From contig JBDTZG010000028.1 of assembly GCA_040005235.1 (NCBI GenBank), positions 1 through 64,000 of the forward strand: a stretch of 64,000 bases of DNA, read 5' to 3'. The notes beneath the pieces were generated by a model, which did not search any database, had not been told where the DNA came from, and worked only from the letters and a program-made list of their open reading frames with translations. Below, one piece after another: positions 11,289-63,760 of the stretch (within the stretch, counting starts at the first letter, position 1; each line of letters opens with the position of its first letter). The position numbers and the translations under genes were made by a program. Origin of the DNA: Acidobacteriota bacterium. GTDB taxonomy: Bacteria; Acidobacteriota; Thermoanaerobaculia; Multivoradales; UBA5704.

Positions 11289-12535
11289 GAAAGGTCGGCG
11301 TCCGCCGCGAACAGATCCGCGAGCAGCACCACCCGGCGGGCGAGCGAGGTGAGATCGAGGAACTCTTCTCGCGTGTGCATACCGCCGCCCACCGGGCCGA
11401 GGCCGTCGAGGACCGGGACGCGGCCGGGGTCGGGGAGAAAGTTGGGAAACGAGATCCCGCCGCGGTCGTCCTCGACTTCGAGCGTCCAGCCGCGGGAGGC
11501 GGCGAGGGCGACCGCCCGGTCGCACCAGGAGCGCTGCGGGCCATGCGGATCGACCGGTGGCACGGTGTGGCCGATCGCCAGATCGAGGACGGTCCCCGTC
11601 TCCTCACCGATCTTCGTCGCGAGCGCCGCCAGATCCTCCGCGATCTTCTCTCCCTCCGCGGTGCGTAGAAAGCGAAACTCCCCCTCGGCGATCGCATGCT
11701 CGGGGACGACGTTCAAGCGCGACTCGGTGCCCAGCAGGGCGGCGTTGGCCGCCGGATCGGAGACGAATCCTGCATCGCCCGCGATCAGGCGGCCGACGTT
11801 GATCGTCGGACCTCCCCCGGGCGCCGAAAGAGCCTCGGCCTCGGCGCACCAGCGGGCCGCGGCGATCAGAGCCGAGTGCCCCTGCCAGTAGTGGAGCCCC
11901 GAGTGGGCGGGGGTGCCCGTGGCGGCGAGGCGCCAGTTGCGCATGCCACGCCGGCCGGCGACCATCGTCTCCGACCCCTCTCGCGGCTCACCCGGTTCGA
12001 GCACCCAGACCGCCCGCGCCGAGGCGCCCCAGCGGGCGGTCGCTTCGCGCGACAGCACGCCCCCCACTTCCTCGTCCGGCACCACGACCAAATGGATGTC
12101 GGCCGGCGGAGCGATGCCGCGCCGGGCGAGCAGGTCGAGCGCGCCGATCAGGGTCGCCAAGCCCCCCTTCATGTCGATCGCGCCGGTCGCGAGCAAGCGA
12201 CCGTCCTGGCGCACGGGAGGAATCGCGGAGAGCACCGTATCCATGTGGCCAAGCAGCAGCAGGCAGGGGGCGTCGTTTCGCGCCGCCGCGGGGCCGCGGG
12301 CGTGGAGCACCGGCAGCGTCGTCTCGCCCACCTGCCGCGGCTCGATCTCGACCGCCAGCCCGCGCGCTTCGAGCGCCTCGCGGAGGAACGCGGCGACCCG
12401 CTCCAGCCCCTGCTGATCGACGCTCGGCGAAGAAAGCGCCGCAAGCTCGGTGAGGAAGGCGAGGGTGGAGGCGAACAGGTCCGGCGGCAACAGCGGGTCG
12501 ACGGTTTTGTCGGTCGGATCGGCCAGATCGGTCAT
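11285..12535 (-). CDS. M20 family metallopeptidase (glutamate carboxypeptidase-like)
   Basis: GHMDTV, DMKGG, PDEEVG, AHSG, GGGMHT metal-binding motifs. Confidence 0.88.
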   Translation of the reverse strand: MTDLADPTDKTVDPLLPPDLFASTLAFLTELAALSSPSVDQQGLERVAAFLREALEARGLAVEIEPRQVGETTLPVLHARGPAAARNDAPCLLLLGHMDTVLSAIPPVRQDGRLLATGAIDMKGGLATLIGALDLLARRGIAPPADIHLVVVPDEEVGGVLSREATARWGASARAVWVLEPGEPREGSETMVAGRRGMRNWRLAATGTPAHSGLHYWQGHSALIAAARWCAEAEALSAPGGGPTINVGRLIAGDAGFVSDPAANAALLGTESRLNVVPEHAIAEGEFRFLRTAEGEKIAEDLAALATKIGEETGTVLDLAIGHTVPPVDPHGPQRSWCDRAVALAASRGWTLEVEDDRGGISFPNFLPDPGRVPVLDGLGPVGGGMHTREEFLDLTSLARRVVLLADLFAADADLS

Positions 12536-12539
12536 GGGG

Positions 12540-13295
12540 CTAGCGTATCGCGCCCCGGCCCTCGAACGCCCCGGTGGCGAGCACCTGGCGCCAGAGGCGA
12601 CGCCAGGCGAACCAGGTGTGGCCGCCATGCGTGTGGAGCACGCGATCGGGAGGCAGCAGCGAGGCGAGCAGGCGGTGCCCCCGGCGCAGACGGTCGGAAT
12701 CGCCGAATCCAAGCAGCAGCGGAGGGCGCTCTGCTCCCGGGGTCTCAAACCCTTGGAACCACACCCAGAGCCGCCGCAGATCGCGCGGCTCGGGTGGAGC
12801 CGCGGGATGCCATTTGCGCGGGCCGCCGGCTTTCTCGATCTCGTCCAAAATCGGATCGTCGCCCAGGTAGGGGGAAAGGAGGACCAACCCTTCTACCTCC
12901 CCGGGTCGGTCGCAGGCGTAGAGCGACGCGCCCAAACCGCCGAGCGAGATCCCGACGAGCCAGATCTTCTCGACCCCGCGGGCGCGGGCCGGCGCGATCA
13001 CGTCCTGATGGAGACGCTCGACGATCGAGCCGTCGGCGAAATAACCGAAATGGCTTTCGACCGCGATCACCTCGCACGGAGATCCGCTGTCGCGGAACGC
13101 TTTCAGGAAGCCGCCCTTGTGGAAGAAGTCTTCTTTATGGTCGCCGAGACCGGGCAGGAAGACGACCAGGCATCGGCCGCCCGGCGCGCCGGGCAGGTCG
13201 GCGGTGGGGATTGGCACGGTGGTCGGCCCCGGTCGCGGTGGGCAGCCGGCGAGGATCAGCGCGGCGAGCAATCCCCAGATCGTTCGTAGGCTCAC
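12540..13295 (-). CDS. Alpha/beta hydrolase lipoprotein
   Basis: GTG start overlapping the upstream stop, lipobox LAGC, nucleophile elbow GISLG, C-terminal GGHTW. Confidence 0.8.
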   Translation of the reverse strand: MSLRTIWGLLAALILAGCPPRPGPTTVPIPTADLPGAPGGRCLVVFLPGLGDHKEDFFHKGGFLKAFRDSGSPCEVIAVESHFGYFADGSIVERLHQDVIAPARARGVEKIWLVGISLGGLGASLYACDRPGEVEGLVLLSPYLGDDPILDEIEKAGGPRKWHPAAPPEPRDLRRLWVWFQGFETPGAERPPLLLGFGDSDRLRRGHRLLASLLPPDRVLHTHGGHTWFAWRRLWRQVLATGAFEGRGAIR

Positions 13296-14701
13296 GGTCG
13301 TTCCTTTTCCGGCAAGACGTCCGGCCACCAGCCGCCCGGTTGGTTGAGCGGCAGAGGGCAGCGATCGACGATGTGCAGCTCGTGGAGCATTCTGTGGTCG
13401 GAGCGGAGCGCCAGATCCAACCCTTTCCGCCCGGCGCAGCGGTAATGGGTGGCGCCGAACGTCTGGGCGACCAGGAGCAACAGGGCGACCGGCGCCGCGA
13501 CCCGGAGCGCCAGCTGGACCCGCTGTGCATGCCGGGTCCGGAGGAGCGAATTCAGCCACAAAAGCGGCGGCAGCACCGCGGCGTGGAGGATCACCAGCCC
13601 CTGCCAGTTCATCACCGTGGTCGGCGCTCCGCAGTAGACGACCACGGCGGCGAGAAACGTCCACGCCGCGTACTCTTCGAGAAAGCGGCGGCCGCTCTTG
13701 CGAAGCACCGCGGGCGGCACCCGCCGACGCCAGCCGCGCCGGACGATCTTTTTGCCCAGGCGGAGATTCGCGATCAGCACCGCAATCATCGTCAACGCGC
13801 CGAGCGCGCCGAGCCCCTGGGCGAGCGGTGTCAGCCACGCGTCCATTCCGGGACCGAAATCGGGGGTGAAATCAAACACCGCCATCTTCCCGCCGATCGA
13901 CAAGCTCGCATGGCGCAGCCAGTAGAGCAACCCGCGCAGCAGGGGGAAGACATAAATCAGCCCGCGGAACAGGAACCCCTGGTTCGCAGCGGAGATCTCC
14001 GGATGGGCCCCGAGGGCAAGAACCCAGGGGACGAGCGGCAGGGCTCCGAGAGCGATCCCGAGCACCACCCCCGGCCAGTGCGGTCGAAACGCGCGACGCA
14101 GCCAGAGCAGGCCGACAGAGCCGAGCAACAGCAGCGCCGAGGGGTGGATCTGAAACGACAGGACAATGCTTGCCGCGAGCACCAGCGACGCGAAGAACGA
14201 AGCCTTCTCGCGCTGGCGCCGGATCGACCACAGGTGGAGCGCGCCGAACAGGAACAGGTAGTTCGGATTCCACAAGAAAGCCGAGTGGTAGAGCCGCCAC
14301 GGGTTCAGCCAATAGAGCAGGGCGAAAGGCAGGCGGGCGCGCGACCCCAGATCGCGATGGACGATCCGGTCGAGCAGCGCGTAGGCGGCGACGTGGAACA
14401 GCAGAATCAAGACGGTCGGCGCTCGGTGGTCGCGCCAAAGGTAGAGCGGCAGGGCGACCAGCAGGGTGGTGAATCCGCCCGCGGCATTGCCGCCGCTCGA
14501 CAGCGGATTGCCGAACGGGATGAAGACCTGATCGACCACCAGCAGCCAGCCGCGGGCGAGCAGATTTAGCTGGTCCCCTCCGACCTGACTGCGGAGCAAC
14601 ATAGCGATCGAGATCGCGAGCCCGGACAGAAAGCTAGCCGCGAGCAGCGCGCGTTCCCGTGGGGTCGTTTCCTGCCGAGGAGATGCTGCTTCGCGCGCCA
14701 T
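13292..14701 (-). CDS. Multi-pass membrane protein, GT-C (ArnT/PMT-like) glycosyltransferase
   Basis: TM1 followed by GDQ loop, WNPN and QIHP motifs, many TM helices. Confidence 0.6.
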   Translation of the reverse strand: MAREAASPRQETTPRERALLAASFLSGLAISIAMLLRSQVGGDQLNLLARGWLLVVDQVFIPFGNPLSSGGNAAGGFTTLLVALPLYLWRDHRAPTVLILLFHVAAYALLDRIVHRDLGSRARLPFALLYWLNPWRLYHSAFLWNPNYLFLFGALHLWSIRRQREKASFFASLVLAASIVLSFQIHPSALLLLGSVGLLWLRRAFRPHWPGVVLGIALGALPLVPWVLALGAHPEISAANQGFLFRGLIYVFPLLRGLLYWLRHASLSIGGKMAVFDFTPDFGPGMDAWLTPLAQGLGALGALTMIAVLIANLRLGKKIVRRGWRRRVPPAVLRKSGRRFLEEYAAWTFLAAVVVYCGAPTTVMNWQGLVILHAAVLPPLLWLNSLLRTRHAQRVQLALRVAAPVALLLLVAQTFGATHYRCAGRKGLDLALRSDHRMLHELHIVDRCPLPLNQPGGWWPDVLPEKERP

Positions 14702-14785
14702 GCCCGCCGAGGATAGCGCAGGCACTCGGAAGGGCACCGGACGCACAGGAGAGAGCCCCGGCGCCACGATAAGATCGAGGTAGCC

Positions 14786-16774
14786 GTGGAAAAACTCCGC
14801 CGACTCCTGCCGGGCTTCCTCGGCCTCGCGCTCTACGCCCTGCTGGCGACGCTTTTCCTCCGTCCGATCTGGCGGGTCTATTCCGATCACATCGCCCCTG
14901 GCCCGGGCGATCCGATTCTCAATATCTACTTCTTGAAGTGGGGGATGCATCAGATCGGGCTTGGTCTGCCGAACGTCTGGGATGCGAACTTCTTCTTTCC
15001 TATGAAGGGCACGCTCACGCTTTCGGACCATCTGCTCGGTCCGGCGCTCCAGCTGTTTCTGCTCCGGCCGCTCGTCCCGAGCGCGATCGTCGGTTACAAC
15101 CTGTTGCTCTGGAGCTCGTTCGTGCTCACCGGAGCCTCGACCGCCTGGGTGCTTCGGCAGACGGGCTGCTCGCGGCCGGCCGCGTTCCTGGGCGGCGCGC
15201 TGTTCGCGTTTTGCCCCTACCGCTGGAGTCAGCTCTGGCACCTCCAGGTGTTGCTGATGCAATGGCTGCCGCTCACGCTCTGGAGCTTCGACCGGCTGCT
15301 CGCCGAACGGACGCCGCGCCGGGCGGGTCTGTTTCTGCTTTTTTACCTGCTCCACGTGACCGGCGGGGCCTATCTTGCCTACATGGTCCACGTTCCGCTC
15401 GCGGCGCTGCTGCTGGTGCGGCTCGCTCGCCCAACCGAACGGCGCGAGTTGTTTTCGCCCCGCTCGCTGCGAATCCTGGGTGTCACGGCCGTCGCGGCGC
15501 TGCTGATGATCGGCGCGATCTTCGCCCCTTACGTGCGCTTTTCCCACGCCAACAAGCTCGAACGAAACGTGACCGACGTCGTGAGTGTCGGCGGCGCTTT
15601 CGCGAGCTATCTCTCGCCCGCGATGGGGGCCACGTACTTCGACGGCGGAACCAAGTATCTGCTGCGCAGGCGGGCTCCGAGCCTCGAAGGGGCGCTCACG
15701 CGGAATGAAAATTCACTCTTCCCCGGCTTCCTGGCCCTCGGATTCGGGCTCGCCGCGCTCCTGGCGGTGCGGGGTCGCCCGGCCGGGGAAATCCCCTGGT
15801 GGCGCCGACAGCCTCCTTCGGCGTGGACCGCGGCGGGGCTCTTGGCTGCCGCGGTCGCGGCTCTGGCGATCGGGGACCACCTTACCCTCCGCGGTCCCGG
15901 GTACGGCCCGCTTCCCGCGGAGGGTGTCTGGTGGGGCGTCGGGCTGGCCGCGTTGGCGGGGCTTGCCGGAGCGCTCTGGGTGCGGCATCGCGCGGGTGCT
16001 CCTCCTCTGCTCGATCGCTCCCGGCTGCCCCCCGAAACCGCCGACTGGTGGCTCGGCCTGGCGCTCGGCGGAGGGGTTTCGCTCCTCCTCTCGCTGCCGG
16101 CCATCTACATCCCGGCGATGCGCCTTCTGCCCGGGCTTTCCGGCATGCGGGTCTCCGCCCGGTTCGGCCTTTTCGTGGTCTTCACGCTCGCCGCCTTTGC
16201 CGCGCGCGGGGTCGATGCGGCGGCCGTCCAAATCTCGGCGGCGATCGGGAGCCAGAAAGCAAAACGACTCGCGCTTGGGGCGTTCGGGGTGCTGATCGCG
16301 ATGGTCGCTTGCTTCGAGCTCGGCCCCAACGGCGTCCGCTGGATGCGGGTGCTCAAAGAGGCCGAGTTTCCTCCGGTCTACGGCTGGCTCGCGAACCGGC
16401 CCGAAGTGTTGGCGGTCGCCGAGATCCCGATGTTTGCGACCCCGTCCGAGACCTCGTACATGTATTACTCGACCGCCCATTGGAAGCCGCTCGCGAACGG
16501 TTTTTCAGGCTACGACCCGCCGATCCATCGAGAGCTTGCGGCGCAGTTACGCACGGTACCGAGCCCCGCCGGCTTGGAACGGTTGCGCCAGTTGGGGGTC
16601 ACTCACCTGGTGGTCCACGCGGGCAATCGCCGGGCGCATCTCACCGAGGCGGATCTCGACCTTTGGACGATGCGCATGAACGGCGAGGTCGAGCGCGTGT
16701 TTTCGGCGCCGCCGGATTTCGTCTACGCGATCAAGCTCCCGAGCGACAGGAAGCCGAACCTCGCCGGTTGGTGA
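14786..16774 (+). CDS. Multi-pass membrane protein, GT-C / YfhO-like glycosyltransferase
   Basis: GDPILN...W, WDANFFFP, FAFCPYR, MRVSARF and HWKPLANGFSGY motifs. Confidence 0.62.
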   Translation: MEKLRRLLPGFLGLALYALLATLFLRPIWRVYSDHIAPGPGDPILNIYFLKWGMHQIGLGLPNVWDANFFFPMKGTLTLSDHLLGPALQLFLLRPLVPSAIVGYNLLLWSSFVLTGASTAWVLRQTGCSRPAAFLGGALFAFCPYRWSQLWHLQVLLMQWLPLTLWSFDRLLAERTPRRAGLFLLFYLLHVTGGAYLAYMVHVPLAALLLVRLARPTERRELFSPRSLRILGVTAVAALLMIGAIFAPYVRFSHANKLERNVTDVVSVGGAFASYLSPAMGATYFDGGTKYLLRRRAPSLEGALTRNENSLFPGFLALGFGLAALLAVRGRPAGEIPWWRRQPPSAWTAAGLLAAAVAALAIGDHLTLRGPGYGPLPAEGVWWGVGLAALAGLAGALWVRHRAGAPPLLDRSRLPPETADWWLGLALGGGVSLLLSLPAIYIPAMRLLPGLSGMRVSARFGLFVVFTLAAFAARGVDAAAVQISAAIGSQKAKRLALGAFGVLIAMVACFELGPNGVRWMRVLKEAEFPPVYGWLANRPEVLAVAEIPMFATPSETSYMYYSTAHWKPLANGFSGYDPPIHRELAAQLRTVPSPAGLERLRQLGVTHLVVHAGNRRAHLTEADLDLWTMRMNGEVERVFSAPPDFVYAIKLPSDRKPNLAGW

Positions 16775-17412
16775 AAATCGGGAGGATCGGCGAGGGTCGG
16801 CGACCAGGCGGAAAACTCGTGCGGAGTGTTCGGCGGGTTCGGCGGGCGTTCGATCCGATAGAAGTTCGCGCGCAGCAGCTCCGGAAGGGACTCCGGACCG
16901 ATGAGCGAAGCCCACGGCAGCACCAGAACCGCCCACCAATCCTGCTCGCCGACGCCCGTGTGAAGCAGATCGGTGCTTCCCGCGCCCCAGCGGATGTCCG
17001 GGCAGTTCCAGGCGGTCTCTACCTTTAGATCCTCGCGCCGGCCGGTCGGGTTCTCTACGCGCGCATCGAACAGCGCGCCGCGGGGGCTTACCTCGAATTC
17101 GAAGTACCGGCGCGGATCGTTGGCTCCGAAAGCCAGAAACAGCTCGACCACCTCTTCCTGCCAGAGCGGATCGTCTCGCTCGGTGAAGGTCCCCCAGGCC
17201 GCGCGATCCGCGCAGTCAAAGCGCACGGCGAGGCCGAACCGGTCGCGGCAGACGCGCACCGCCGTTTTCCAGATTGCGGCGCCGCCGGCGTCGGAACGGA
17301 GGAGCGGCGGCAACCGGGGAATGTGCTCCCAGGCCCAAAGGCCGACGACCGCATCGTCGTCGAGCGGTAGAGGCGCCATCGGTACGCGCCAGCGCGGCAA
17401 GGGAATCGTCAT
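16723..17412 (-). CDS. Carbohydrate-binding family 9-like protein
   Basis: LWQEEVVELFL, YFEFEVSP, RANFYR, AWSPT and DFHQP...FG. Confidence 0.75.
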   Translation of the reverse strand: MTIPLPRWRVPMAPLPLDDDAVVGLWAWEHIPRLPPLLRSDAGGAAIWKTAVRVCRDRFGLAVRFDCADRAAWGTFTERDDPLWQEEVVELFLAFGANDPRRYFEFEVSPRGALFDARVENPTGRREDLKVETAWNCPDIRWGAGSTDLLHTGVGEQDWWAVLVLPWASLIGPESLPELLRANFYRIERPPNPPNTPHEFSAWSPTLADPPDFHQPARFGFLSLGSLIA

Positions 17413-54609: not shown

Positions 54610-55053
54610 CTAGATTCCGCCGCGCTCCGCCAGGGCGCGGGAGTCGTCCTCGGTGAACGGCTGCTCGGCCATCCGCGCGACCAGGCGCTCGTGGTTCCAG
54701 ACGATCAGGTGGTCGATCTGCGCCATCACCACCACGTCGCCGCTCATCCCGGCGCTCTCCCGCAGGATCTGCGGAATCACCAACCGCCCCTGGTCGTCCA
54801 ACCGCACCTGCTGGCCGTAGTAGCTCGCGCGCTCCAGGAACCGCTGCTTCGAGGGATCGGCCGAGGGCATCGCTTGGAGCTTCCCCTCGATCTCTTCCCA
54901 GACCGGCAGCGGGTAGAGCCGTGCGCAATCGCCGTGGACCGAGGTCACGAACAGCTCGCGCCCATACCTCTCCTCAACGAACCGGCGGAAATCCGTCGGC
55001 ACCTTGAGGCGGCCCTTCTCGTCGATCTTCGCTGGTGAGCTACCCCGGAACAT
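54610..55053 (-). CDS. mraZ: Division/cell wall cluster repressor MraZ
   Basis: Two DxxGR motifs (DEKGR, DDQGR). Confidence 0.96.
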   Translation of the reverse strand: MFRGSSPAKIDEKGRLKVPTDFRRFVEERYGRELFVTSVHGDCARLYPLPVWEEIEGKLQAMPSADPSKQRFLERASYYGQQVRLDDQGRLVIPQILRESAGMSGDVVVMAQIDHLIVWNHERLVARMAEQPFTEDDSRALAERGGI

Positions 55054-55100
55054 GACCCCCGCCTTTGGGTCCAGCTATTTGGAGGGTGATTCTAGTCTGG

Positions 55101-55140
55101 TTGCTCCACTTCTGTCCAATTTTATCCACTAGGGGCCACC
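55101..55140 (-). promoter_or_regulatory. MraZ-binding repeats
   Basis: GTGG/GTGG/TTGG/GTGG at an exact 10-bp period upstream of mraZ. Confidence 0.75.
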
Positions 55141-55366
55141 AGGACCCCGCGGTGGGCTCTGAAACCTCTTTCCGCAGGGTCGGCGCGGGCGGCAGAGTCG
55201 GCACGGGTGTTGAGTACCCGGTCCGGGCACGAGGCGTACCTCAGGGGCTGTCGGCGCAAAAATTTGCGAAATTTGCCGCCCAGGGGTCCCGCTGTCTCGC
55301 ATTGACGCGCCGAAGCACCGTAACATTGCAGAGACCACACAATTGATTCGACCGAGGAGACCCCCC

Positions 55367-56827
55367 GTGTCGCAAAATCCTGTGCCGCTGCTTGCCGTGG
55401 TGTTGCGGAATCTCCGCGAGCGAGCCGGCTGGACCCAAGTCCGGCTCGAACGCGAGGCTCGCCTCAGCAAGGGATCGCTCTGCCGGCTGGAGAAGGGCAG
55501 CCAGACGGTCGATCGTTTCCTGCTCAATCGGCTGGCGAAGGTGATGAGAATCGCCGAGGGTGACGTGGAACAGGCGCTCGCAGTGCTGGAGCAGCTCCCG
55601 GCGGAGACCGGCGCCGGTTCGTCCGCGGACCTGCCGGTTCGCGACCGGCAGACGATCGAAACCGTCAGCGCGCGCTTTTCCCGCATGGTTCGCGAGAAGG
55701 CCCAGAACCGAATCGGGGGGAAGGTCCGCGCCCGGCGCTGGCGTCTCGACCGCGCGGCGGCCGCCGTGGCGTGGCAGCGGCTGCGCAAAATGCCCTCCGA
55801 GGATCGCCGGCTGATCGTTAAAGCGGTTGAGGCCTTTCACACCTGGGCGGTGGTGGAACGGCTTTGCGAGGAGAGCGTAAGGGCGGCGGCCAGCGATATG
55901 GAGGAGGCCCGTAGGCTGGCGCAGCTTGCCCGGCAGGCCTCGACGGCCGCGAGCGGTGCCGAGCGAAGATATAAGTCGCTCGAAAATTACGCGGCGGCCT
56001 TCGAAGCGAACGCCTGGTGCGCTGCCGGCGAATTTCGGAAAGCCGAGCAGATTTTTGCCGAGGTCGATGCGCTCCATGGAGAAGGGCTGGACATCGCGGC
56101 AGTACCGGTCGATTGGGCCAGGCCACTGATCTTTCGAGCGGTGCTTATGATTTATCGGGCGAACCTCGATCCGGCATTGGAATGGCTGAACGAGGCGCTT
56201 TCGCTCACTCGCTCGCCGACCGTCAAGACTTGGGCGTTAATCTGGCGAGCCGCTGTGCTCAAGCGGAAGCTCCAATTTCCCGCGGCGCTTGAGGAGCTGG
56301 AAAAGGCTCGGCCGTACGCCGAGCTTGCAGGCGATGCCCGGCTTCGATGGGCCATCGCCTTCAATGAAGCGGGTTATTTATGCGAAGCCGGCCATTTGGC
56401 GGAGGCTGCCGCCCGCCTTCCAGCCCTGAAGCTGGCAGCGTTGGAGCTCGGAGGAGCTCTGGATCGCCTGCGGCTCCGCTGGTTGACCGCGAGAGTGGCT
56501 GCTGCTTCAGGCCTGTTCCAGGAAGCCGCGACGAACCTCTCCGAGGTTTGGAATGCCTTTGCCGACCGGAACCTCTGGCTCGACGCGGCGATCGCGGTTC
56601 TCGAGCTGGCCAGCATCAACCTGGAGATGGGTCTGTCTGCCCAGGTCAAGAAGCTCGCCACGGCATCTGCTCACGTCTTCGCGGCGCAGACCCTGCCCGA
56701 CCACCTTCTCGCGGCGGTTCGACTATTCTGGCAGGCCGCCCTTCAGGAAGCGGCCACTTCACAAATGGCGCGACAGCTGGTTGGGGACCTTCGCCGCGCC
56801 ATGGTGGCAAACGCCGAAGCCTCCTGA
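55367..56827 (+). CDS. XRE-type HTH regulator with long TPR-like helical C-terminal region
   Basis: LRNLRERAGWTQVRL...LCRLEKG HTH, FHTWAVVERLCEES, Ala/Leu-rich helical repeats; GAGGAG RBS before GTG. Confidence 0.8.
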   Translation: MSQNPVPLLAVVLRNLRERAGWTQVRLEREARLSKGSLCRLEKGSQTVDRFLLNRLAKVMRIAEGDVEQALAVLEQLPAETGAGSSADLPVRDRQTIETVSARFSRMVREKAQNRIGGKVRARRWRLDRAAAAVAWQRLRKMPSEDRRLIVKAVEAFHTWAVVERLCEESVRAAASDMEEARRLAQLARQASTAASGAERRYKSLENYAAAFEANAWCAAGEFRKAEQIFAEVDALHGEGLDIAAVPVDWARPLIFRAVLMIYRANLDPALEWLNEALSLTRSPTVKTWALIWRAAVLKRKLQFPAALEELEKARPYAELAGDARLRWAIAFNEAGYLCEAGHLAEAAARLPALKLAALELGGALDRLRLRWLTARVAAASGLFQEAATNLSEVWNAFADRNLWLDAAIAVLELASINLEMGLSAQVKKLATASAHVFAAQTLPDHLLAAVRLFWQAALQEAATSQMARQLVGDLRRAMVANAEAS

Positions 56828-56846
56828 AGTCGTCGTCTCGCTTGGG

Positions 56847-57134
56847 CTAGGTCCCACACAGACCGTTCGGGTTGATCTCGCAGCCGACTTCGCCGAGAGG
56901 AGGCTTACTTCTCGGGCGACCGGAGTCGGAAGCACTGCGTCCGTCTGGGCTTGCGCCGCGGCGCCCGCTGGGCTCGATCTCGCAACCGCTCGGCGCCCAC
57001 AGCGCGGAAAAGAATCTCCCGGCTTTGGCGAGCAGGTTCCCGAGATCCCACGGTGCGGCGGAGGCCTGGGTCGGGAAGGCGAGGACCACGACGAGAAGCA
57101 AGAGCGGCAGACGGCGGGGCGACGAAGCGGACAT
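56847..57134 (-). CDS. Small secreted peptide with repeated GCEIxPxG motif
   Basis: AGGAG RBS, Sec signal ending ASA, GCEIEPSG and GCEINPNGLC; fits between the two regulator genes. Confidence 0.7.
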   Translation of the reverse strand: MSASSPRRLPLLLLVVVLAFPTQASAAPWDLGNLLAKAGRFFSALWAPSGCEIEPSGRRGASPDGRSASDSGRPRSKPPLGEVGCEINPNGLCGT

Positions 57135-57334
57135 GACCGACTCCTATTCCGAGGGGACCGGCGCCGCGGCCTCCATGGCCGAACGGGCACCCTGCGAGTT
57201 CTTCCAGGCGCGCCTGGGCGAAGCTTGGACGCAAAATTTTGTGCTGCCAGGCGTACGGTGGGGTCTATCTTAGGAGCAAGCCCCGCCCTGCACGCTCTTT
57301 CGATACGATTCCCTCCAGAAACTCGGGAGGTGAC

Positions 57335-58159
57335 ATGAACGACGCCTTGGATCGCCGCGCGGCAGGCTTGGTGATGCAGTTGTTTCGCTTCATGGCCGGC
57401 CGCCACCAGCACGACCTGAGCGAACGGACCGGGATCGACATAAAGCGGATTTCGCGTTACGAGCAGGGAAAAGTTCTGCCTCTTCGGCCGACGCTCGAAC
57501 GACTCGCTGCGGGCGTCGGCGTCTCCGCGACCCGGCTCGATCAGCTTCTCGCGTTGATTCGCACCGTGTGCGCCGAGGGCGAGGCGGCGACCGCCCAAAA
57601 GGAGCACGCCACAGCAGACCCCGACGAGTCCGATTGGCCGGACGATCTCGCCGAGCTGGCGGCGGAGATCGCCGAAGACCTACAGCCCGAGATTTACCAA
57701 GCCCTGAAGGAATTGAACGCCGAGCTGAACGCGCCGCCTCCGCCACTCGCCCCGGAAGCGGCGCGCGCCCAGGCTCGGGAGCTATGGGGAAGGTTCGAAC
57801 CCTTGCCGGATCGCGTTCGCCGCCTGGTGATCGAACATGGCAAGGAGTACCAAACCTGGGCCTTTTGCGAACGGCTCTGCGAAGCAAGCCTCGACGCCGG
57901 ATCGCGCGCGCCGGAGGACGGTCAGGCCTTGGCCGACCTGGCGCTCTCGGTCGCCGAGGCCGCCCAAGGGTCCGACGTGCTGCGCCAGCGCCTGACCGCC
58001 TTCGCCCTCGCCTGCGCCGCCCACGCGGATGTCCTCGCCGGGGACTCGGAAGAGGCCGCCGAGAAGCTGGGCCGGGCCAAGGCGCTCTGGACGGCCGGGG
58101 ACGGCACCGACGATCTCGACCTCGGCCAGATCGCCGATCTGGTGCCCGCCGACTCGTAA
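57335..58159 (+). CDS. XRE-type HTH regulator, short paralog of 55367-56827
   Basis: GGAGGTG RBS, HQHDLSERTGI...ISRYEQG HTH, YQTWAFCERLCEAS. Confidence 0.78.
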   Translation: MNDALDRRAAGLVMQLFRFMAGRHQHDLSERTGIDIKRISRYEQGKVLPLRPTLERLAAGVGVSATRLDQLLALIRTVCAEGEAATAQKEHATADPDESDWPDDLAELAAEIAEDLQPEIYQALKELNAELNAPPPPLAPEAARAQARELWGRFEPLPDRVRRLVIEHGKEYQTWAFCERLCEASLDAGSRAPEDGQALADLALSVAEAAQGSDVLRQRLTAFALACAAHADVLAGDSEEAAEKLGRAKALWTAGDGTDDLDLGQIADLVPADS

Positions 58160-58168
58160 GGAGTCCCC

Positions 58169-58570
58169 TCAGTTCGGCGCCCGCCGACTTGCGTCCGGCG
58201 GAAGCTCCGGCGGCGGCGGGCCGAGACGGCGCTCCAGGTCGGCGATCTTCTGTTCGAGATCTTCCGCCAGGATTTCGAGAGCCTGACAGAGCCGGTCCTC
58301 TTCCTCGGTCACCGTCGAGAGCCGCCGGGTCGCGGCGAGCCCGGCGAACGCCTGCTTTGTATGCCAGAGGTCGTCGATGCCGGCGCGCGTTCCCGCCTTG
58401 AGCCACGGTTCTCCGAACCCCGAGCCGTCTTCCAGCTCCAGCGCTTCCTCGGCGATCTTTTCGCAGGCATCCTGGACGCGTTGGCGCAAACCCGGCCGGG
58501 TGAAATGGACCAGGACCGACTCGCGGAACGGCGCCATCTCTCTCCAGCGGCGCTTGATCGGGTTGGTCAT
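58169..58570 (-). CDS. Hypothetical helical/coiled-coil protein
   Basis: ATGA overlap with the upstream gene; ends 9 bp from the convergent regulator. Confidence 0.6.
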   Translation of the reverse strand: MTNPIKRRWREMAPFRESVLVHFTRPGLRQRVQDACEKIAEEALELEDGSGFGEPWLKAGTRAGIDDLWHTKQAFAGLAATRRLSTVTEEEDRLCQALEILAEDLEQKIADLERRLGPPPPELPPDASRRAPN

Positions 58571-59001
58571 CCTGGGGATGCCCGTCGCTCAGTCCGCACG
58601 GCGGCCCGGTGCCGGCCCAGGCGTCTCTCCTGCACCAGACCCAGGAATGCGTCCCGATTCGCGGCCCCATGGGTCATCAGCGCCGCGAAGACCCGAAGGT
58701 TCAGACGGGCACCTTCCGGGGGCGGTGTACCTTCCAAGAGGGCGAGCAGTCGGGCGGCCAGCTCCGGCAAGATGCCCCCTCGCCCCTGGCGCAACAATAC
58801 GGTTCCCAGCTCGATGTAGGCGTCCGCCGCTGCCATCACCTCGCCCGATGCGCGCCAGGTTCCCGCGGCGCGGCCGAACAGTCGCGCCGCCTCTTCGAGG
58901 TTCCCATCGTCCCGCTCGCGCTCGGCCCGGTCGAAGATCTCTCCGGCGGCCCGCCGCAACTCGCCGGGTGCGAGGGGAGAGGCCGGACTTACAGAGGCCA
59001 T
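58567..59001 (-). CDS. Small TPR-like protein resembling the regulator C-terminal domain
   Basis: GNLEEAARLF...AAADAYIELGTVLLRQG...LAARLL...LRVF; AAAGGA RBS. Confidence 0.62.
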   Translation of the reverse strand: MASVSPASPLAPGELRRAAGEIFDRAERERDDGNLEEAARLFGRAAGTWRASGEVMAAADAYIELGTVLLRQGRGGILPELAARLLALLEGTPPPEGARLNLRVFAALMTHGAANRDAFLGLVQERRLGRHRAAVRTERRASPG

Positions 59002-59438
59002 TCCATTCCTTTTCTGTGCTTCCGGACGTCCGCGAGCAACTCGCCTAGTAACGGCGAGCTCGGCGGGGTGATCTCGAGCAAGAGCAAAAGGTTGGAAAAA
59101 AGCTCGATTTCCGGCGGCGCCACGGCGAGCGTCGCCGGCTTGGCGGCGAGCCAGTCCGGCAGGTCGACACGTTCAAGGCGATAGACCGCGGCCAGCGAGA
59201 GCGCCGCTAGCCCTTCGAGCCAGGGTTGCTCCGCTTTGCCGAAGGCATGGACGGCGAGAATAAAACTCTCTTCTGCCTGGGACAGGTTGCCCGCCGCCGC
59301 GGCGCGCTCGGCAAAATCCATCGAGCGCCAAGCCAACCGGAAAAAAGCCGGATGCGCCGGTTCCTTAGCCGGCGCATCCGCGGGCCCTGCGAGCGCGAGA
59401 GGGGGTGCGGGTCGCCCGCAGGGGAAAAAGGAGTCCAT
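58989..59438 (-). CDS. Small TPR-like hypothetical protein
   Basis: GNLSQAEESF...AF...GLAALSLAAVY; overlaps the next gene by 13 nt; start uncertain. Confidence 0.5.
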   Translation of the reverse strand: MDSFFPCGRPAPPLALAGPADAPAKEPAHPAFFRLAWRSMDFAERAAAAGNLSQAEESFILAVHAFGKAEQPWLEGLAALSLAAVYRLERVDLPDWLAAKPATLAVAPPEIELFSNLLLLLEITPPSSPLLGELLADVRKHRKGMEWPL

Positions 59439-59633
59439 GCGTGCGAGGGTAGGTCCAGGGATTCAGCTTTCGCGCTAGCCTGCCGCTCGTGGATGGCGTA
59501 GTTATCCATTTCGATAACATTTCTTGGGATGCCGGGGAACTTTCCCAGCTCGTCATGCCGAGCGAGAGCTCTGCACACTCCAGCGGAGGCGGGGGGGAGT
59601 TCCGGCACTACATTCAATATTGCAGGAACCACC

Positions 59634-60716
59634 CTAGGGCTGCAGGCCGCCGTTCCACGAAGTGTCCTTGAGCAGATCGGCCCAATTCACGTCGGCGCTC
59701 AGCACATTGAATTCGTCGCTGCCGTCCGAGAAGACGTTGAGGTGTGCCGCCCGCCGAAAGACCTCCTCGCCTTGAATTTCGAAGCCGGGCCGTAGCGGCG
59801 GCAAGATGTAGAGGCCCATCCACGGACTACCGGTTGGGTTACAGCCCGTCTGGCCGGAAGCGGTGCAGAAGGGGAGCGCCGTGATTTCGCCCGTCGTCAA
59901 GCGTCCCTGGGTATCGGTGTGCAGGCGCAGCAGGAAGGGGATTTCCAGGTCACTGTAGACACACACTCCGTCGTCATCGCAGGAAAGGGCAGAGTCATAG
60001 GCGTCAATCCGGTAAGTCAGCGGCTCCTCCGCCCGGTAGAGAGCGGTCTTGTAGGAAATAAAGGCGCAGAACGGATTGGGAATGGGTTCCGCCAGGCAGC
60101 CTGTCGGCCGAACCGTCCGCGCGAGGATCGAGTAGACCTTGAGGTCAAAGTCGGTCACTTCGGTATGGCAGGGAGAGAGTAGGTCGTCGACGGTCAAACC
60201 GCGTCCCGCGGTGTCCGCGTGGTCCGCCTGCGCGTCCTGGAGAGTGGTGATCCGAATCGAATTCTTCGGCTGAAAAGGGTCTGGCGGCTCCCGGGACAGG
60301 ATGAGATCCACGAGCATCGAGAACCGGGTCGTCCCCTCGAGATTCGAAGACGCATCCCGCCGAACCAAGGTGGCCTGGGGCCGGCGATCCCTTCGGGGGT
60401 TCAAGAAGTCCTCGTCCTCGCGAAGGATCAGGTCGAACGCCAGCTGTTTCTCCTGTCGCTCGCGGTCGCCTTGAACCGTGGTGTGTCGCAACTGGCTGGT
60501 GCTGGCCAATCCTCTGTAGGTGCCGCCATTGGCGCTCGACCGCCAGAGGAGGAGGCTCGACTCCCCGTAGGAAACCCCCATGCGGTGCAGCAACCTCCCC
60601 ATTTGCCGCTCTTCGCAGGCGACCTGCTCGGACGTGAGGGGGCGGCCGAAGGGCTGGGCCACAGCATTGCGTACCGCACATGCGCCGAAGACCAGGGCCA
60701 CGGCCCAAGCCGGCAC
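59634..60716 (-). CDS. Secreted Cys-rich hypothetical protein, paralog 2
   Basis: Signal-like N-terminus, then QPFG...; collinear with the upstream paralog; start uncertain (60716 or 60749). Confidence 0.75.
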   Translation of the reverse strand: MPAWAVALVFGACAVRNAVAQPFGRPLTSEQVACEERQMGRLLHRMGVSYGESSLLLWRSSANGGTYRGLASTSQLRHTTVQGDRERQEKQLAFDLILREDEDFLNPRRDRRPQATLVRRDASSNLEGTTRFSMLVDLILSREPPDPFQPKNSIRITTLQDAQADHADTAGRGLTVDDLLSPCHTEVTDFDLKVYSILARTVRPTGCLAEPIPNPFCAFISYKTALYRAEEPLTYRIDAYDSALSCDDDGVCVYSDLEIPFLLRLHTDTQGRLTTGEITALPFCTASGQTGCNPTGSPWMGLYILPPLRPGFEIQGEEVFRRAAHLNVFSDGSDEFNVLSADVNWADLLKDTSWNGGLQP

Positions 60717-60724
60717 CCGCCACC

Positions 60725-61828
60725 CTACGGCTGCAGGCCGCCGTTCCACGAGGTGTCCTTGAGCAGGTCCGCCCAGTTGACGTCGGCACGTAGAATGTTC
60801 AAGTCAGGAAAGGCAACCGAGAAAAGGTTCAGGTGGGCCGCACGCCGAAAGACTTCCTCTCCCTGAACCTCGATGCCGGGTCTCAGGGGAGGTAAGACGT
60901 AAAGGCCCATCCAAGGACTGTCCTCCGGGCTGCATCCGGTTTGGCCCGACGCTGTGCAAAACGGCAGCAGCGAGACCTCCCCGGATGCCAACCGGCCTTG
61001 GGCGTCGGCTTGGATGCGAAACAGCAGTGAATTCTGCTCGTCGCTGTAAACGCACACGCCGTCTTCGTCGCAGGACAACGAGGAGAGATATACGTCGGCC
61101 CGATAGGTCAGCGGCTCCTCCGCGCGGTAGAACGCGGTTTTAAAGGAAATGAATCCGCAGACCGGGTTGGGAATGGGTTCCGCCAGGCAGCCCGTCGGCC
61201 GCACCGTCCGGGCGAGGATCGAGTAGACCTTTAGGTCGAAATCGGTCACCTCAGTATGGCAGGTATTCAAAAGGTCGTCGACGGTCAGACCGCGTCCGGC
61301 GGTGTCCGCGTGGTCCTCCGGCGCTTCCTGGAGGGTGGTGATCCGGATCGAATTCTTTGGGTGGAAAGGGTCGGGCGGCTCCGGGGACAGGATGAGATCT
61401 ACGAGCATCGAGAACCGGGTCGTTCCCATCGGGTCGAGGTTCGACGCCGCGTCCCGCCGGACCAGCGTCGCCTGCGGGCGGCGTTCCCGCCGGGGGTTCA
61501 AGAAGTCTTCATCGGCGCGGAGAATCAGGTCAAACGCCAGCTGTTTCTCATCGCGCATCCGGATGTCTACGGTCGTCGTAGGATCGAAATAAAGGTGGTC
61601 CGTACTGGCCAAGCCTCTGTAGCTGCCGCCGTTGGCCGCCGATCGCCAAAGGTAGAGGCCAGCCTCGCCATATGAGACCCCCATACGATGAAGCAATCGC
61701 CCCATCTGGCGCTCCTCGCAGGCGACCTGCTCGGACGTGAGGGGGCTGCCGAAGGGCTGGGCCGCCATAATTCCCGGGGCGATGATTACCAGGAAGAGAA
61801 TCGCGAACAACGCGCTTTTGGGTTTCAT
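60725..61828 (-). CDS. Secreted Cys-rich hypothetical protein, paralog 1
   Basis: MKPKSALFAILFLVII signal peptide; ATGA overlap with the upstream frame. Confidence 0.8.
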   Translation of the reverse strand: MKPKSALFAILFLVIIAPGIMAAQPFGSPLTSEQVACEERQMGRLLHRMGVSYGEAGLYLWRSAANGGSYRGLASTDHLYFDPTTTVDIRMRDEKQLAFDLILRADEDFLNPRRERRPQATLVRRDAASNLDPMGTTRFSMLVDLILSPEPPDPFHPKNSIRITTLQEAPEDHADTAGRGLTVDDLLNTCHTEVTDFDLKVYSILARTVRPTGCLAEPIPNPVCGFISFKTAFYRAEEPLTYRADVYLSSLSCDEDGVCVYSDEQNSLLFRIQADAQGRLASGEVSLLPFCTASGQTGCSPEDSPWMGLYVLPPLRPGIEVQGEEVFRRAAHLNLFSVAFPDLNILRADVNWADLLKDTSWNGGLQP

Positions 61829-63760
61829 AGCTTCCCCGCTGAACCTGTCTTCTGTTGGACCTGGAGAACGATGTCGAAGGAATAGAACGGCGAAACGATC
61901 TCGCAACTTCCCCCGTTGCAGGTTTTGTGGATGGGATCCCAATTGATGGTCTGGACTGCCGTCATGGTTCCCGTTGCCGGCGTGACCCACTGGACCTCGA
62001 ACCGATCGGCCGTCGGTCCGAGGTTCAAGAGCGTCAAGCGGTCTTGGTATTTCTGCGCCAGCCAGATCCGCGCGTCGAAAGCGTTGCGCGGGAGAAATAT
62101 CGGTTTGGCGCTCGGAGACGTGGACTCTTTGGGGCATCCGTTCGCAGTGAACTCCGCCTCGGGCGCGTTCGATGCCGTGCTGGCCGCGCAGCGGATCGTG
62201 CTGTGGTGTAGATAGAGCAGGAAAAGCCGGTTCGGCTCCGGTCTCCGACCTGGATCGGCATCAATCGGTATCCGTCGGAGATTGAGGGCCTTGATGTAGG
62301 TCGGGTCTCGCAGCGCTATTGGGCAGCCCTCCAGACCAAGCTGACCGGGACGAGGTGAGGCGCCCGAGCGGCAGCGCGTTGACGAATTTCTTGAGTACGC
62401 CGAGTTGGCGCCGAATGGTCGCGGGGGTGTTCGGGTCGCCTCCGGAGAGATATCCGAAATGGTCGTAGGTGGCGCCCTGGTCGAACAGAAACTCCCAGGC
62501 TTCGGCGCGCGCCGGTTCGGCGAGCTTTTCTGTCAGGGCGCCGTTGGTATGGGCGCGGGTGCCGCTCTTGCCTCCGACATCTGGGTTGCCGATGAACTGA
62601 CCGGCGCCTTTGGTCGTAAACGGCTGTACCGCCACCAAATGCCCGCCGGCGGCCAAGCGCGGGTATTTCGCTTCCTGAAAGGTGACCTGGGCAATCATGT
62701 CGCGCTGCCACTTGGCGACCTCGAGGGGATCGACGGTCTGGGCCTCCGGCTCGTTGGCGATCTCCCAATAGACGGTGTCGAAGCACCAGAGTTCTTGGAC
62801 CGTCCACTCGATCACTTTGGCCTGGGCCACGCGCATGCGCTCGTTCGTCAGGGCCTCCTGGGTGCCTCGCGTGTCGTGGGTCACGAAGTACTCGGGCTTT
62901 GAGAACTTCACCGTCTCGAACGTCCCGTCCGACTTCGGCATCATCCCCTTGCCGCCCCAGGGACCCTGGGAGAAGAAATCTCCCTCGAACGGCGCGAAGA
63001 TGGTCACTTCGACGATCATCTTCCTCGGGTCCTGGGCGTAGGCCACGACATCGCGCAAGCGTTGGAAATACCGCGTGTTCGGCTTGTCCAGGCGCCAGAA
63101 CGGGTAGGCGTTGGCCGGGAAGTTGGCGCAGTCGGGGCTCGCCACGGCGCTCGGGCAATAGAGGAACGGGACGTTGTTCGGGTTTTTCTCTCCGGCCAGG
63201 GCGATCCAGAGGCGGAGCTTGTTCAGGCCCGCTTCGAAGGCGGCTTGGATCGTCGTGGGGTAGTTGGTCCAGTTGCATTTGTCGGAGGAGAGTTCGAGGT
63301 GGCAGCCGTTGTCAGCCGAGACGCCGACGAGGGTCTGGATCGTGTTGCGGTACGAAAAGTAGCGCGAGGCGAAAGGCAGGGCGGCGGTCGTTTTGCCGAT
63401 CTTGATCGGGGTGATCGTCTGCGTGATGTTGCCGCAACCGGTGGCGGAAATCGTGGGATCGGCCGGAACGTCGGGGTCGGTGCCCAGCAGCTCGGGCGGA
63501 TAGAGATCCTCCGAGTCGAGCGAATTCGGGTCGCCGTCGTAGGGGAGCAAGTCGTCGCCGAGGGTCCACAGCTCGGCGGGCAAGCTGGGGTCGGTGGTCG
63601 AGCCACCGTCGCCGAAGACGGAAGAGAGGGGTGGCTCTTCTTCGGGTCCGGGTGGGGGTTGGGCGGGAAGGGGGGCACCGACCGAGAGGAACGAAAGAAA
63701 GATGAAGGCGAGGGTCGCACGGTGGCAGAGGGATAAGAGTAGCGAGCGAGTTCGGTCCAC
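61825..63760 (-). pseudogene. Secreted glycoside hydrolase-like (GH-A clan, NEP) protein interrupted by an internal inversion/frameshift
   Basis: Signal peptide, NKLRLW, YFQRLRDVV, WEIANEP and RAEAWEF. The frame breaks near 62340, and protein-like sequence (LFLLYLHHS...VQWVTPATG...SFDIVL) resumes in another frame to 61825. Confidence 0.65.

Follow-up and report, generated by a model that had tools for sequence, protein, structure and literature searches.

Multiplied pairs of TPR regulators and small secreted Cys-loop peptide genes in Thermoanaerobaculia: a possible RRNPP-like signaling module in a diderm lineage

Peptide signaling through cytoplasmic receptors with a tetratricopeptide repeat (TPR) domain is treated as a Bacillota trait in the parts of three papers drawn on here (PMC10075063, PMC9765709, PMC11343458), and the introduction of one of them, the RRNPP_detector paper (PMC10075063), assigns peptide quorum sensing to that phylum and leaves Acidobacteria unmentioned. 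We analyzed a 64,000-nucleotide stretch of an Acidobacteriota genome (assembly GCA_040005235.1, contig JBDTZG010000028.1, positions 1 to 64,000; hereafter the window) that contains three adjacent genes, for a long regulator, a small secreted peptide and a short regulator, whose arrangement resembles that of the NprR-NprX and PlcR-PapR systems of the Bacillus cereus group. As in those systems, the putative cytoplasmic receptor joins an N-terminal XRE-type helix-turn-helix (HTH) to a TPR superhelix, a small propeptide gene adjoins the receptor gene and its product is predicted to be exported, the candidate active unit lies at the C-terminus of the propeptide, and an operator-like element in the promoter of the peptide gene implies a feedback loop. 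The locus also departs from them in several respects. It belongs to a diderm acidobacterium rather than to a member of the Bacillota; its receptor has no significant sequence similarity to theirs beyond the generic HTH (PlcR, E = 0.011); its peptide gene is convergent with the receptor gene, whereas theirs is co-directional; its peptide family carries Cys-x7-Cys loops that are probably disulfide-closed, whereas their peptides are linear and unmodified; and it includes a third gene, the short HTH paralog, and recurs as ~30 modules per genome.

Two further groups of described proteins bear comparison. The TPR domain of the long regulator finds its best structural match in a Rap-Phr cassette (RapJ-PhrC, 4gyo), in a tie with APPBP2 and LGN, so that the match speaks for a type of fold rather than for kinship, and the new loci share with Rap-Phr cassettes several pheromone copies per propeptide (as for the Rap systems of phages phi3T and phi105) and many paralogs per genome; the parts consulted of PMC11343458 and PMC9765709 describe RRNPPA propeptides in which the pheromone is duplicated in tandem. 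Rap proteins, however, lack an HTH and act on response regulators, and Phr peptides are linear penta- or hexapeptides. The second comparison concerns not the window genes but a class of their paralogs, called class B below, which resemble ChrR-type zinc-binding anti-sigma (ZAS) factors in having a zinc-motif N-terminal domain and, at one locus, an extracytoplasmic function (ECF) sigma factor gene that overlaps the receptor start. Unlike ChrR-type factors, the class-B proteins have the anti-sigma domain fused to a TPR sensor and are paired with a secreted peptide gene, and most of their loci are without an adjacent sigma gene.

The long regulator, the candidate receptor of the window, is encoded at 55367..56827 on the forward strand, from a GTG start to a stop codon at 56827, and comprises 486 amino acids (aa). 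Its stop lies 19 bp (56828-56846) from that of the convergent peptide precursor gene (56847..57134, reverse strand, 95 aa), and a 200-bp intergenic region separates the peptide gene from the divergent short HTH paralog (57335..58159, forward strand, 274 aa). An earlier note on this DNA had described a 486-aa regulator, a 19-bp gap, a 95-codon convergent gene and a divergent second paralog, and all of these lie where it placed them. Both regulators match Pfam HTH_31 and HTH_3 (XRE-type, Cro/C1-type helix-turn-helix), the short one with E = 7.5e-8 for HTH_31. The short regulator aligns to residues 32-237 of the long one; it keeps the HTH and the first part of the helical domain and is without most of the TPR domain. 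Across seven orthologous modules it is 60-84% identical, exceeding the conservation of the long regulator in all seven.

The peptide precursor has sequence features expected of a translated and secreted protein. An AGGAG ribosome-binding site lies 7 nt ahead of its ATG, and its N-terminus consists of a stretch of Lys and Arg, a hydrophobic core and an A-S-A site followed by Ala, which together make up a predicted Sec signal peptide (57057..57134, reverse strand, aa 1-26; the cleavage site was placed by eye). N-termini of the family reach a maximum Kyte-Doolittle 19-residue score of about 2. Repeat 1, GCEIEPSG (56964..56987, reverse strand, aa 50-57), is followed by RR in place of xC, and the C-terminal repeat, GCEINPNGLC (56856..56885, reverse strand, aa 84-93), is the sole intact Cys-x7-Cys unit of the window copy. 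Inspection of the open reading frame (ORF) and ribosome-binding site thus bears out the good ribosome-binding site, the Sec-type signal and the two motif copies, GCEIEPSG and GCEINPNG(LC), that had been claimed for this gene. The window peptide matches the family hidden Markov model (HMM) with E = 4e-29, and its orthologues, at 51-64% identity, keep the frame open in seven loci. A chance or non-coding ORF is ruled out, given that open frame, ribosome-binding site and motif are conserved across dozens of genomes. Neither Pfam nor NCBIfam gave a meaningful match to the window peptide or to nine of its paralogs, and the ESM Atlas offered only unnamed Acidobacteriota clusters and a low-confidence model.

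Across the family, the signal peptide is followed by a conserved helix ending in W..FLS.LWA (FFSALWA in the window copy) and then by 2-5 units with the consensus GC-x-[ILVF]-[DE]-P-x-G-x-C, or, in Cys-less relatives, G-x-x-[ILV]-D-P-x-G-[RK]-P; nearly all members have a strong ribosome-binding site. In many relatives the unit is also the end of the protein, with ...DPNG followed directly by the stop codon. Orthologues of the window peptide mostly carry three full GCE[IL]xPxGxC units, and two of them (P0036 and P0041) show GC(E/V)IxPxGRC at the position of repeat 1. The window copy has lost the closing Cys of unit 1 and most of unit 2, leaving the C-terminal unit alone intact. All five close orthologues (P0036, P0041, P0047, P0049 and P0053) likewise keep the C-terminal unit while other units decay; in one orthologue, Tyr replaces both cysteines of unit 1. 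Candidate ligands of the window module would be GCEINPNGLC and GCEINPNGLCGT.

The cysteines of the units tend to come in pairs. Among the units matched by regular expression in 71 peptides, 158 have both cysteines and 12 a single one, 7 of these 12 having a second Cys one residue further on, and the total number of cysteines is even in 66 of the 71 peptides. The pairing fits one disulfide per unit. The disulfide closure of the motif proposed earlier thereby gains indirect support from the paired cysteines and even counts of the family; the window copy, with its three cysteines, is among the five odd ones. Furthermore, variable positions of the units are more similar within a precursor (0.466) than between precursors (0.321), a value reached in none of 5000 permutations.

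We next consider the long regulator. Pfam assigns HTH_31 to residues 9-63 (E = 1e-8, 35.8 bits, cut-off 27) and no further domain rises above noise, and NCBIfam gives a weak TPR-type match to PorW over residues 262-429. Its homologues are 477-490 aa long and start at the identical position. An AlphaFold2 model built from a 35-homologue alignment is entirely helical (mean predicted local distance difference test score, pLDDT, 83.9; predicted template-modeling score, pTM, 0.72) and is composed of an XRE HTH (aa 8-75), a low-confidence linker, a long helix within aa 90-140 (aa 106-140) and a TPR-like superhelix from about 156 to 480, the last with pLDDT mostly above 85 and with its helix pairs running from about 156 to 478. 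Of the XRE HTH and TPR-like region claimed at the outset, the HTH is therefore recognized by Pfam, while the helical region of the window copy has no Pfam TPR match of its own; its TPR identity follows from the predicted structure and from its homologues and paralogs, which carry Pfam TPR_12 above the cut-off. No transmembrane segment is predicted in either receptor class.

The model was compared with solved structures by Foldseek and VIA. By Foldseek the top match is RapJ with PhrC (4gyo; E = 7.5e-5, target TM 0.66), the list after it includes LGN, RapF, RapH and phi3T Rap, and the PlcR-PapR-DNA complex (3u3w) stands at rank 33. In the VIA comparison, the matches include APPBP2 with a degron peptide (Z = 22.6), RapJ-PhrC (Z = 21.8, root-mean-square deviation 3.7 over 298 residues), phi3T Rap with pheromones (Z = 20.6-21.1), RapF-PhrF (Z = 21.0), LGN (Z = 20.9), NprR (Z = 20.4 for the apo form, 5dbk, and 19.8 for NprR-NprX, 4gpk), AimR (Z = 17.3) and MalT domain III (Z = 17.3). 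With respect to the TPR groove expected of such a receptor, the model is a TPR superhelix, with peptide-bound Rap and NprR among the best solved matches. As judged from the model, the receptor fold is of the peptide-binding TPR superhelix type, which does not by itself show kinship with RRNPP proteins. Profile matches to XRE regulators in the PDB reach E = 7e-8. Since the sequence links to RRNPP proteins are only generic or weak and the structural match is tied, we regard the long regulator as working, by analogy, like an RRNPP receptor and do not file it as a member of that family; the RRNPP comparison drawn earlier accordingly holds for architecture (HTH, TPR-type domain, adjacent propeptide gene), and membership at the sequence level was not established.

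Two residues of the TPR helices, Asn215 and Asn333, are nearly invariant among the 35 homologues. RRNPP receptors hold the backbone of their peptide by conserved Asn residues. Asn215 lies within an NA.R-like motif, and that Asn is invariant in class-B paralogs as well. Among orthologues, the TPR part is 60% identical, compared with 80% for the HTH. Prediction of a complex between receptor residues 100-486 and the mature peptide (aa 28-95), using both alignments, scored 0.04 and 0.02 against a mark of 0.32, in runs without controls, values that speak neither for nor against binding.

The association between receptor and peptide genes is repeated throughout the genome. Searching its own 6.2-Mb genome with the long regulator gives 41 matches. 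To collect the peptides, we used a six-frame motif search and then an HMM made from nine peptides; 17 of the 18 HMM hits at E <= 1e-5 lie within 1.5 kb of a match to a regulator paralog. From the HMM list we curated 32 peptide genes by signal peptide and motif, a step that involves judgement. A receptor-family ORF lies within 700 bp of 30 of these 32 genes and, conversely, a curated peptide gene lies within 700 bp of 34 of the 43 receptor-family ORFs (E <= 1e-25); the chance of a random gene falling that close to one of the 41 matches is about 3% (by arithmetic, not simulation).

The loci fall into two classes that differ in the output domain of the receptor. In class A (15 loci, the window included), the gene for an HTH-TPR protein and a peptide gene downstream of it converge, with 23-170 bp between them in the locus survey, and on its other side the peptide gene diverges from a second HTH paralog, long or short, at 11 of these loci. 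Class B (about 15 loci) has the peptide gene ahead of, and co-directional with, a gene for a ~450-aa protein that shares the C-terminal domain but differs at the N-terminus. The N-terminus of class-B proteins contains His5, His30, Cys35 and Cys38, invariant in all eight aligned paralogs (H-x(24)-H-x(3-4)-C-x2-C); a profile of this domain matches ChrR (2q1z, 2z2s; E = 2e-6) and DdvA (E = 2.6e-4), and Pfam zf-HC2 exceeds the cut-off at one locus and comes close to it at two. Class-B proteins also match Pfam TPR_12 above the cut-off, with up to 60.7 bits, and an HMM of class B recovers class-A proteins with E-values of 1e-43 to 1e-71. Because HTH and anti-sigma classes both pair with peptides, what stays constant beside the peptide is the TPR domain, regardless of the output domain attached to it. 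In our view, this constant pairing is the strongest argument that the TPR domain may interact with the peptide.

An ECF sigma gene stands beside a class-B receptor only at contig regions C103 and C12; most loci have none, and adjacency to a sigma gene as a general class-B feature is ruled out. The C103 cluster (11797-17341; L112:1297-6342) runs on one strand through an ECF sigma gene, a ZAS-TPR gene whose start the first sigma gene overlaps, a second ECF sigma gene, a peptide gene with three AGIQIDGNG units, an ECF sigma match and another ZAS-TPR gene. At C44 (66082-67128; L114:3583-4629), a Peptidase_S51 gene begins 4 bp past a class-B ZAS-TPR gene that itself follows a peptide gene; it could possibly encode a processing enzyme, for this locus only. 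At C8 (64197-67908; L119:8197-11908), a PF00496 binding protein and an OppC-like permease are encoded 3.4 kb from an HTH-TPR/peptide/short-HTH module, with a histidine kinase and a 437-aa protein between them. This is the one Opp/Dpp-type binding protein of the genome (PF00496, E = 4.7e-89).

We also searched beyond this genome. The peptide profile retrieved 56 proteins from a collection of 5.8 billion, all unnamed or annotated "hypothetical protein" and all from metagenome-assembled genomes (MAGs) of Thermoanaerobaculia. Within the same family it matched 17 of 18 genomes, at most 34 times in any one of them; it also matched 2 of 12 genomes from other families of the order, and it matched none of 300 other genomes across the phylum at E <= 1e-5 (16 candidates scored per genome). 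The receptor profile extends somewhat further: all 18 genomes of the family have it, as do 9 of the 12 from elsewhere in the order.

We surveyed 78 regulator loci with one genome per species, all from Thermoanaerobaculia or Acidobacteriota MAGs; at 72 of these loci the downstream sequence extended for 450 bp or more. In 58 of the 78 loci a peptide-HMM hit (E <= 0.01) directly follows the regulator in convergent orientation, and in 73 there is a hit somewhere within the 2.5-kb flanks, so the enrichment of peptide genes beside regulator homologues that the earlier note had anticipated is indeed observed. At most of the other 15 flanking-positive loci the peptide gene is divergent and upstream, which identifies the regulator as the second paralog of its module. 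In five more distant genomes, the regulator relatives are class B. There, an ORF on the same strand that begins like a signal peptide and carries the motif within its last 25 residues lies upstream of 13 of the 32 distinct receptors, against 0 of 32 in the opposite-strand control (13 of 266 ORFs versus 0 of 307); these distant precursors keep the DPxG end while their pro-region varies.

The motif is conserved and follows the receptor tree by clade. We compared a FastTree tree of 70 receptors with the motif classes of their peptides: the window clade (19 rows, support 100) pairs with CE[IL]xPxGxC and the other clade with Cx[ILV]DPxGxC, and subclades differ by the residue between Pro and Gly (His, Tyr, Val or Asn/Asp/Ser) or by the loss of both cysteines. 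Since adjacent genes are inherited together, such agreement is expected under any reading of the locus.

Putative operators accompany the three window genes. A 14-bp palindrome, CGCAAAATTTTGCG, has two copies in the window, each with one substitution: CGCAAAAATTTGCG at 55255..55268, between mraZ and the long regulator gene and ~110 bp upstream of the latter, and CGCAAAATTTTGTG at 57230..57243, in the middle of the intergenic region between the peptide and short-regulator genes. We compared 16 loci from the receptor clade to which the window belongs: the palindrome is present at both corresponding places in 12, in the intergenic region only in two, upstream only in one (where the locus ends early) and at neither in one; the upstream copy, taken by itself, is found at its place in 13 of the 16. 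The genome background, with up to three substitutions allowed, is 0.03 per kb. The longest invariant block among 11 aligned related intergenic regions is GCAAAATTT.G. Shorter motifs were rejected as evidence: the window count of the 8-mer AAATTTGC alone was reached by 14 of 100 shuffles and that of the 12-mer GCAAAATTTTGC alone by 8 of 100, neither of them significant. The case for an operator rests on positional conservation. A promoter and terminator scan of 55000-59700 gave nothing above shuffles except a promoter-like site on the mraZ side.

The position of the palindromes suggests that all three genes, for the long regulator, the peptide and the short regulator, are under joint control by one of the module's HTH proteins, which would constitute a feedback loop like those of quorum-sensing circuits. 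Any autoregulated regulator with a target would give an equal pattern, and signaling is not thereby distinguished. Upstream of the peptide genes of other modules there are different AT-rich palindromes, CCCGTTTAAACGG(G) at C107 and C76, where it lies ~76 bp and ~17 bp from the peptide start, respectively, and CCCAAAATTTTGGG at C111. These differences among paralogs suggest that the operators may have diversified.

We propose, at what we would call even chances, that the three genes form an autoregulated peptide-receptor signaling module with RRNPP logic in a diderm. In this model, the 95-aa precursor would be exported by Sec and its signal peptide removed, and one or more short C-x-[IL]-x-P-x-G-x-C units would be released, of which the window copy has only GCEINPNGLC intact. 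The released unit, probably disulfide-closed into a small hairpin loop, would then re-enter the cytoplasm and bind in the groove of the long HTH-TPR superhelix, and binding would alter the action of the long regulator at the palindromic operator CGCAAAATTTTGCG. The short HTH paralog, which has no sensor, would probably serve as a ligand-independent partner or antagonist at the same operator. A broader version of the proposal, which we advance tentatively and with slightly less than even confidence, is that one family-level lineage of Thermoanaerobaculia operates ~30 parallel peptide communication channels per genome, in which disulfide-stapled hairpin nonapeptides from multi-copy Sec precursors would address a cytoplasmic TPR sensor whose output is an XRE HTH in some loci and a zinc anti-sigma domain in others.

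Several observations weigh against this signaling model. Some concern the kinship and behavior of the receptor: the structural Z-scores to RRNPP proteins (17-22) are tied with those to APPBP2, LGN and subunits of APC/C, and a profile search against PDB sequences links the regulator to RRNPP proteins only through the generic HTH (PlcR, E = 0.011) and through a TPR match that is weak (RapH, E = 0.0046). The operator is seen only at the module's own promoters, no additional copies pointing to an output regulon having been found, and the agreement between motif and receptor tree is weak evidence for binding, as co-inheritance of adjacent genes alone could explain it. Others concern the peptide. 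The signal peptide and pro-region helix (APWDFG.LLAKAGGFFSALWAP) are conserved above the repeats among close orthologues, which is not predicted by a plain pheromone precursor; two of the three units have decayed in the window copy and its Cys count is odd (3); and the hydrophobic-D-P-x-G core is common to nearly all paralogs, so that few positions are left to separate ~30 channels. A peptide of ~1 kDa must also cross both the outer and the inner membrane to reach a cytoplasmic receptor, and neither an importer nor a processing protease is linked to the modules, the single Opp locus lying 3.4 kb from one module only. Finally, no RNA run was listed as containing 55200-58300 (two DNA runs contain it, maybe from the source sample), and peptide binding, processing, re-import and expression are all inferred from sequence.

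These points must be set against what competing explanations would account for. The HTH proteins might merely regulate a small secreted protein that acts outside the cell, for instance a Cys-loop mini-protein that is bacteriocin-like or adhesive or binds metal or calcium, with the TPR domain sensing something else or oligomerizing; we consider this unlikely but give it a real share of the probability. Under such a scheme the operator in the peptide promoter region would be that of any regulator-target pair, a secreted peptide would need neither of the missing linked genes for import and proteolysis, and conservation of the whole mature part, pro-region helix included, would be natural, as would repeated disulfide loops, which also occur in structural mini-proteins. 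It leaves unexplained, however, why there should be ~30 tiny secreted proteins with a dedicated regulator each, why the peptide always goes with a TPR sensor even though the output domain may be an HTH or an anti-sigma domain, why a unit is placed at the C-terminus and persists there during decay, and why the sensor domain and the peptide jointly diverge faster than the HTH. Were it true, the loci would still represent an undescribed and very large set of secreted Cys-loop mini-proteins with dedicated regulators.

The conservation of the pro-region helix bears on another explanation, in which the cytoplasmic TPR domain binds the unexported precursor, for example through this amphipathic helix, and reports on export, like the TPR chaperone co-activators of type III secretion. 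The helix is the best-conserved part both among orthologues and across the family (W..FLS.LWA), TPR proteins often bind helices or extended segments, and, with receptor and precursor made in one compartment, re-import is not needed. We nevertheless hold such secretion-coupled sensing to be improbable: Sec substrates this small are exported quickly, the distant class-B precursors retain their DPxG end and vary in the pro-region, and the scheme does not account for the C-terminal position of the unit or for repeated, clade-specific Cys-loop units whose paired cysteines are sensible only outside the cytoplasm. It is very improbable, in our estimate, that the small gene encodes the multi-core precursor of a ribosomally synthesized and post-translationally modified peptide (RiPP), altered by enzymes and governed by the HTH proteins as pathway-specific regulators. 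No family of modifying enzyme, dedicated protease or exporter was found among eight window proteins or 31 proteins of nine paralogous loci, whose neighbors are housekeeping or unrelated genes; multi-copy, Cys-bearing core peptides are typical of several RiPP classes, yet a Sec signal peptide is unusual for their precursors and ~30 precursors without a cluster would be odd.

The surroundings of the window module were also compared with those of related loci. Three small genes for cytoplasmic helical proteins of 133, 144 and 149 aa (58169..59438, reverse strand) travel with the module: in 11 related loci searched by tblastn, o133 was found in nine, o144 in five and o149 in one, and in related genomes their relatives may lie to one side of the module or to the other. 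The 144-aa protein has only a weak Pfam TPR_12 match. These proteins may be the output of the module or accessory parts of it. No palindrome copy lies ahead of the o149-o133 operon or of the two large secreted-protein genes beyond it. The latter (59634-60749 and 60725-62137, reverse strand) encode paralogous proteins of 371 aa and ~350 aa (from an internal start) that have long identical stretches in common and belong to no Pfam or NCBIfam family. On its other side, the module directly adjoins mraZ, the start of the dcw cell-division cluster (window 54610-55366, with rsmH, ftsL, ftsI and murE upstream), as it does in two further genomes (L034 and L038).

A literature search retrieved no publication on such a module and none joining RRNPP with Acidobacteria, although supplementary files, which lay outside the search, might list such groups; by title or abstract, nothing on a system of this kind appeared in the literature on Thermoanaerobaculia and quorum sensing. 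Within the portion of the ECF classification consulted (PMC7826278), ZAS-TPR anti-sigma factors with peptide genes are not described. We consider the finding real and robust and, within the limits of our searches, unpublished; the function proposed for it is well motivated.

If the signaling model is correct, RRNPP-type peptide quorum sensing would not be confined to Gram-positive bacteria, and the second wiring, through a zinc anti-sigma domain, would be the first peptide-gated ECF sigma switch. The range of bacterial communication would be widened by a system with dozens of copies, Cys-loop chemistry and an anti-sigma output in a diderm soil phylum, and it would offer a handle on regulation in the largely uncultured Acidobacteria.

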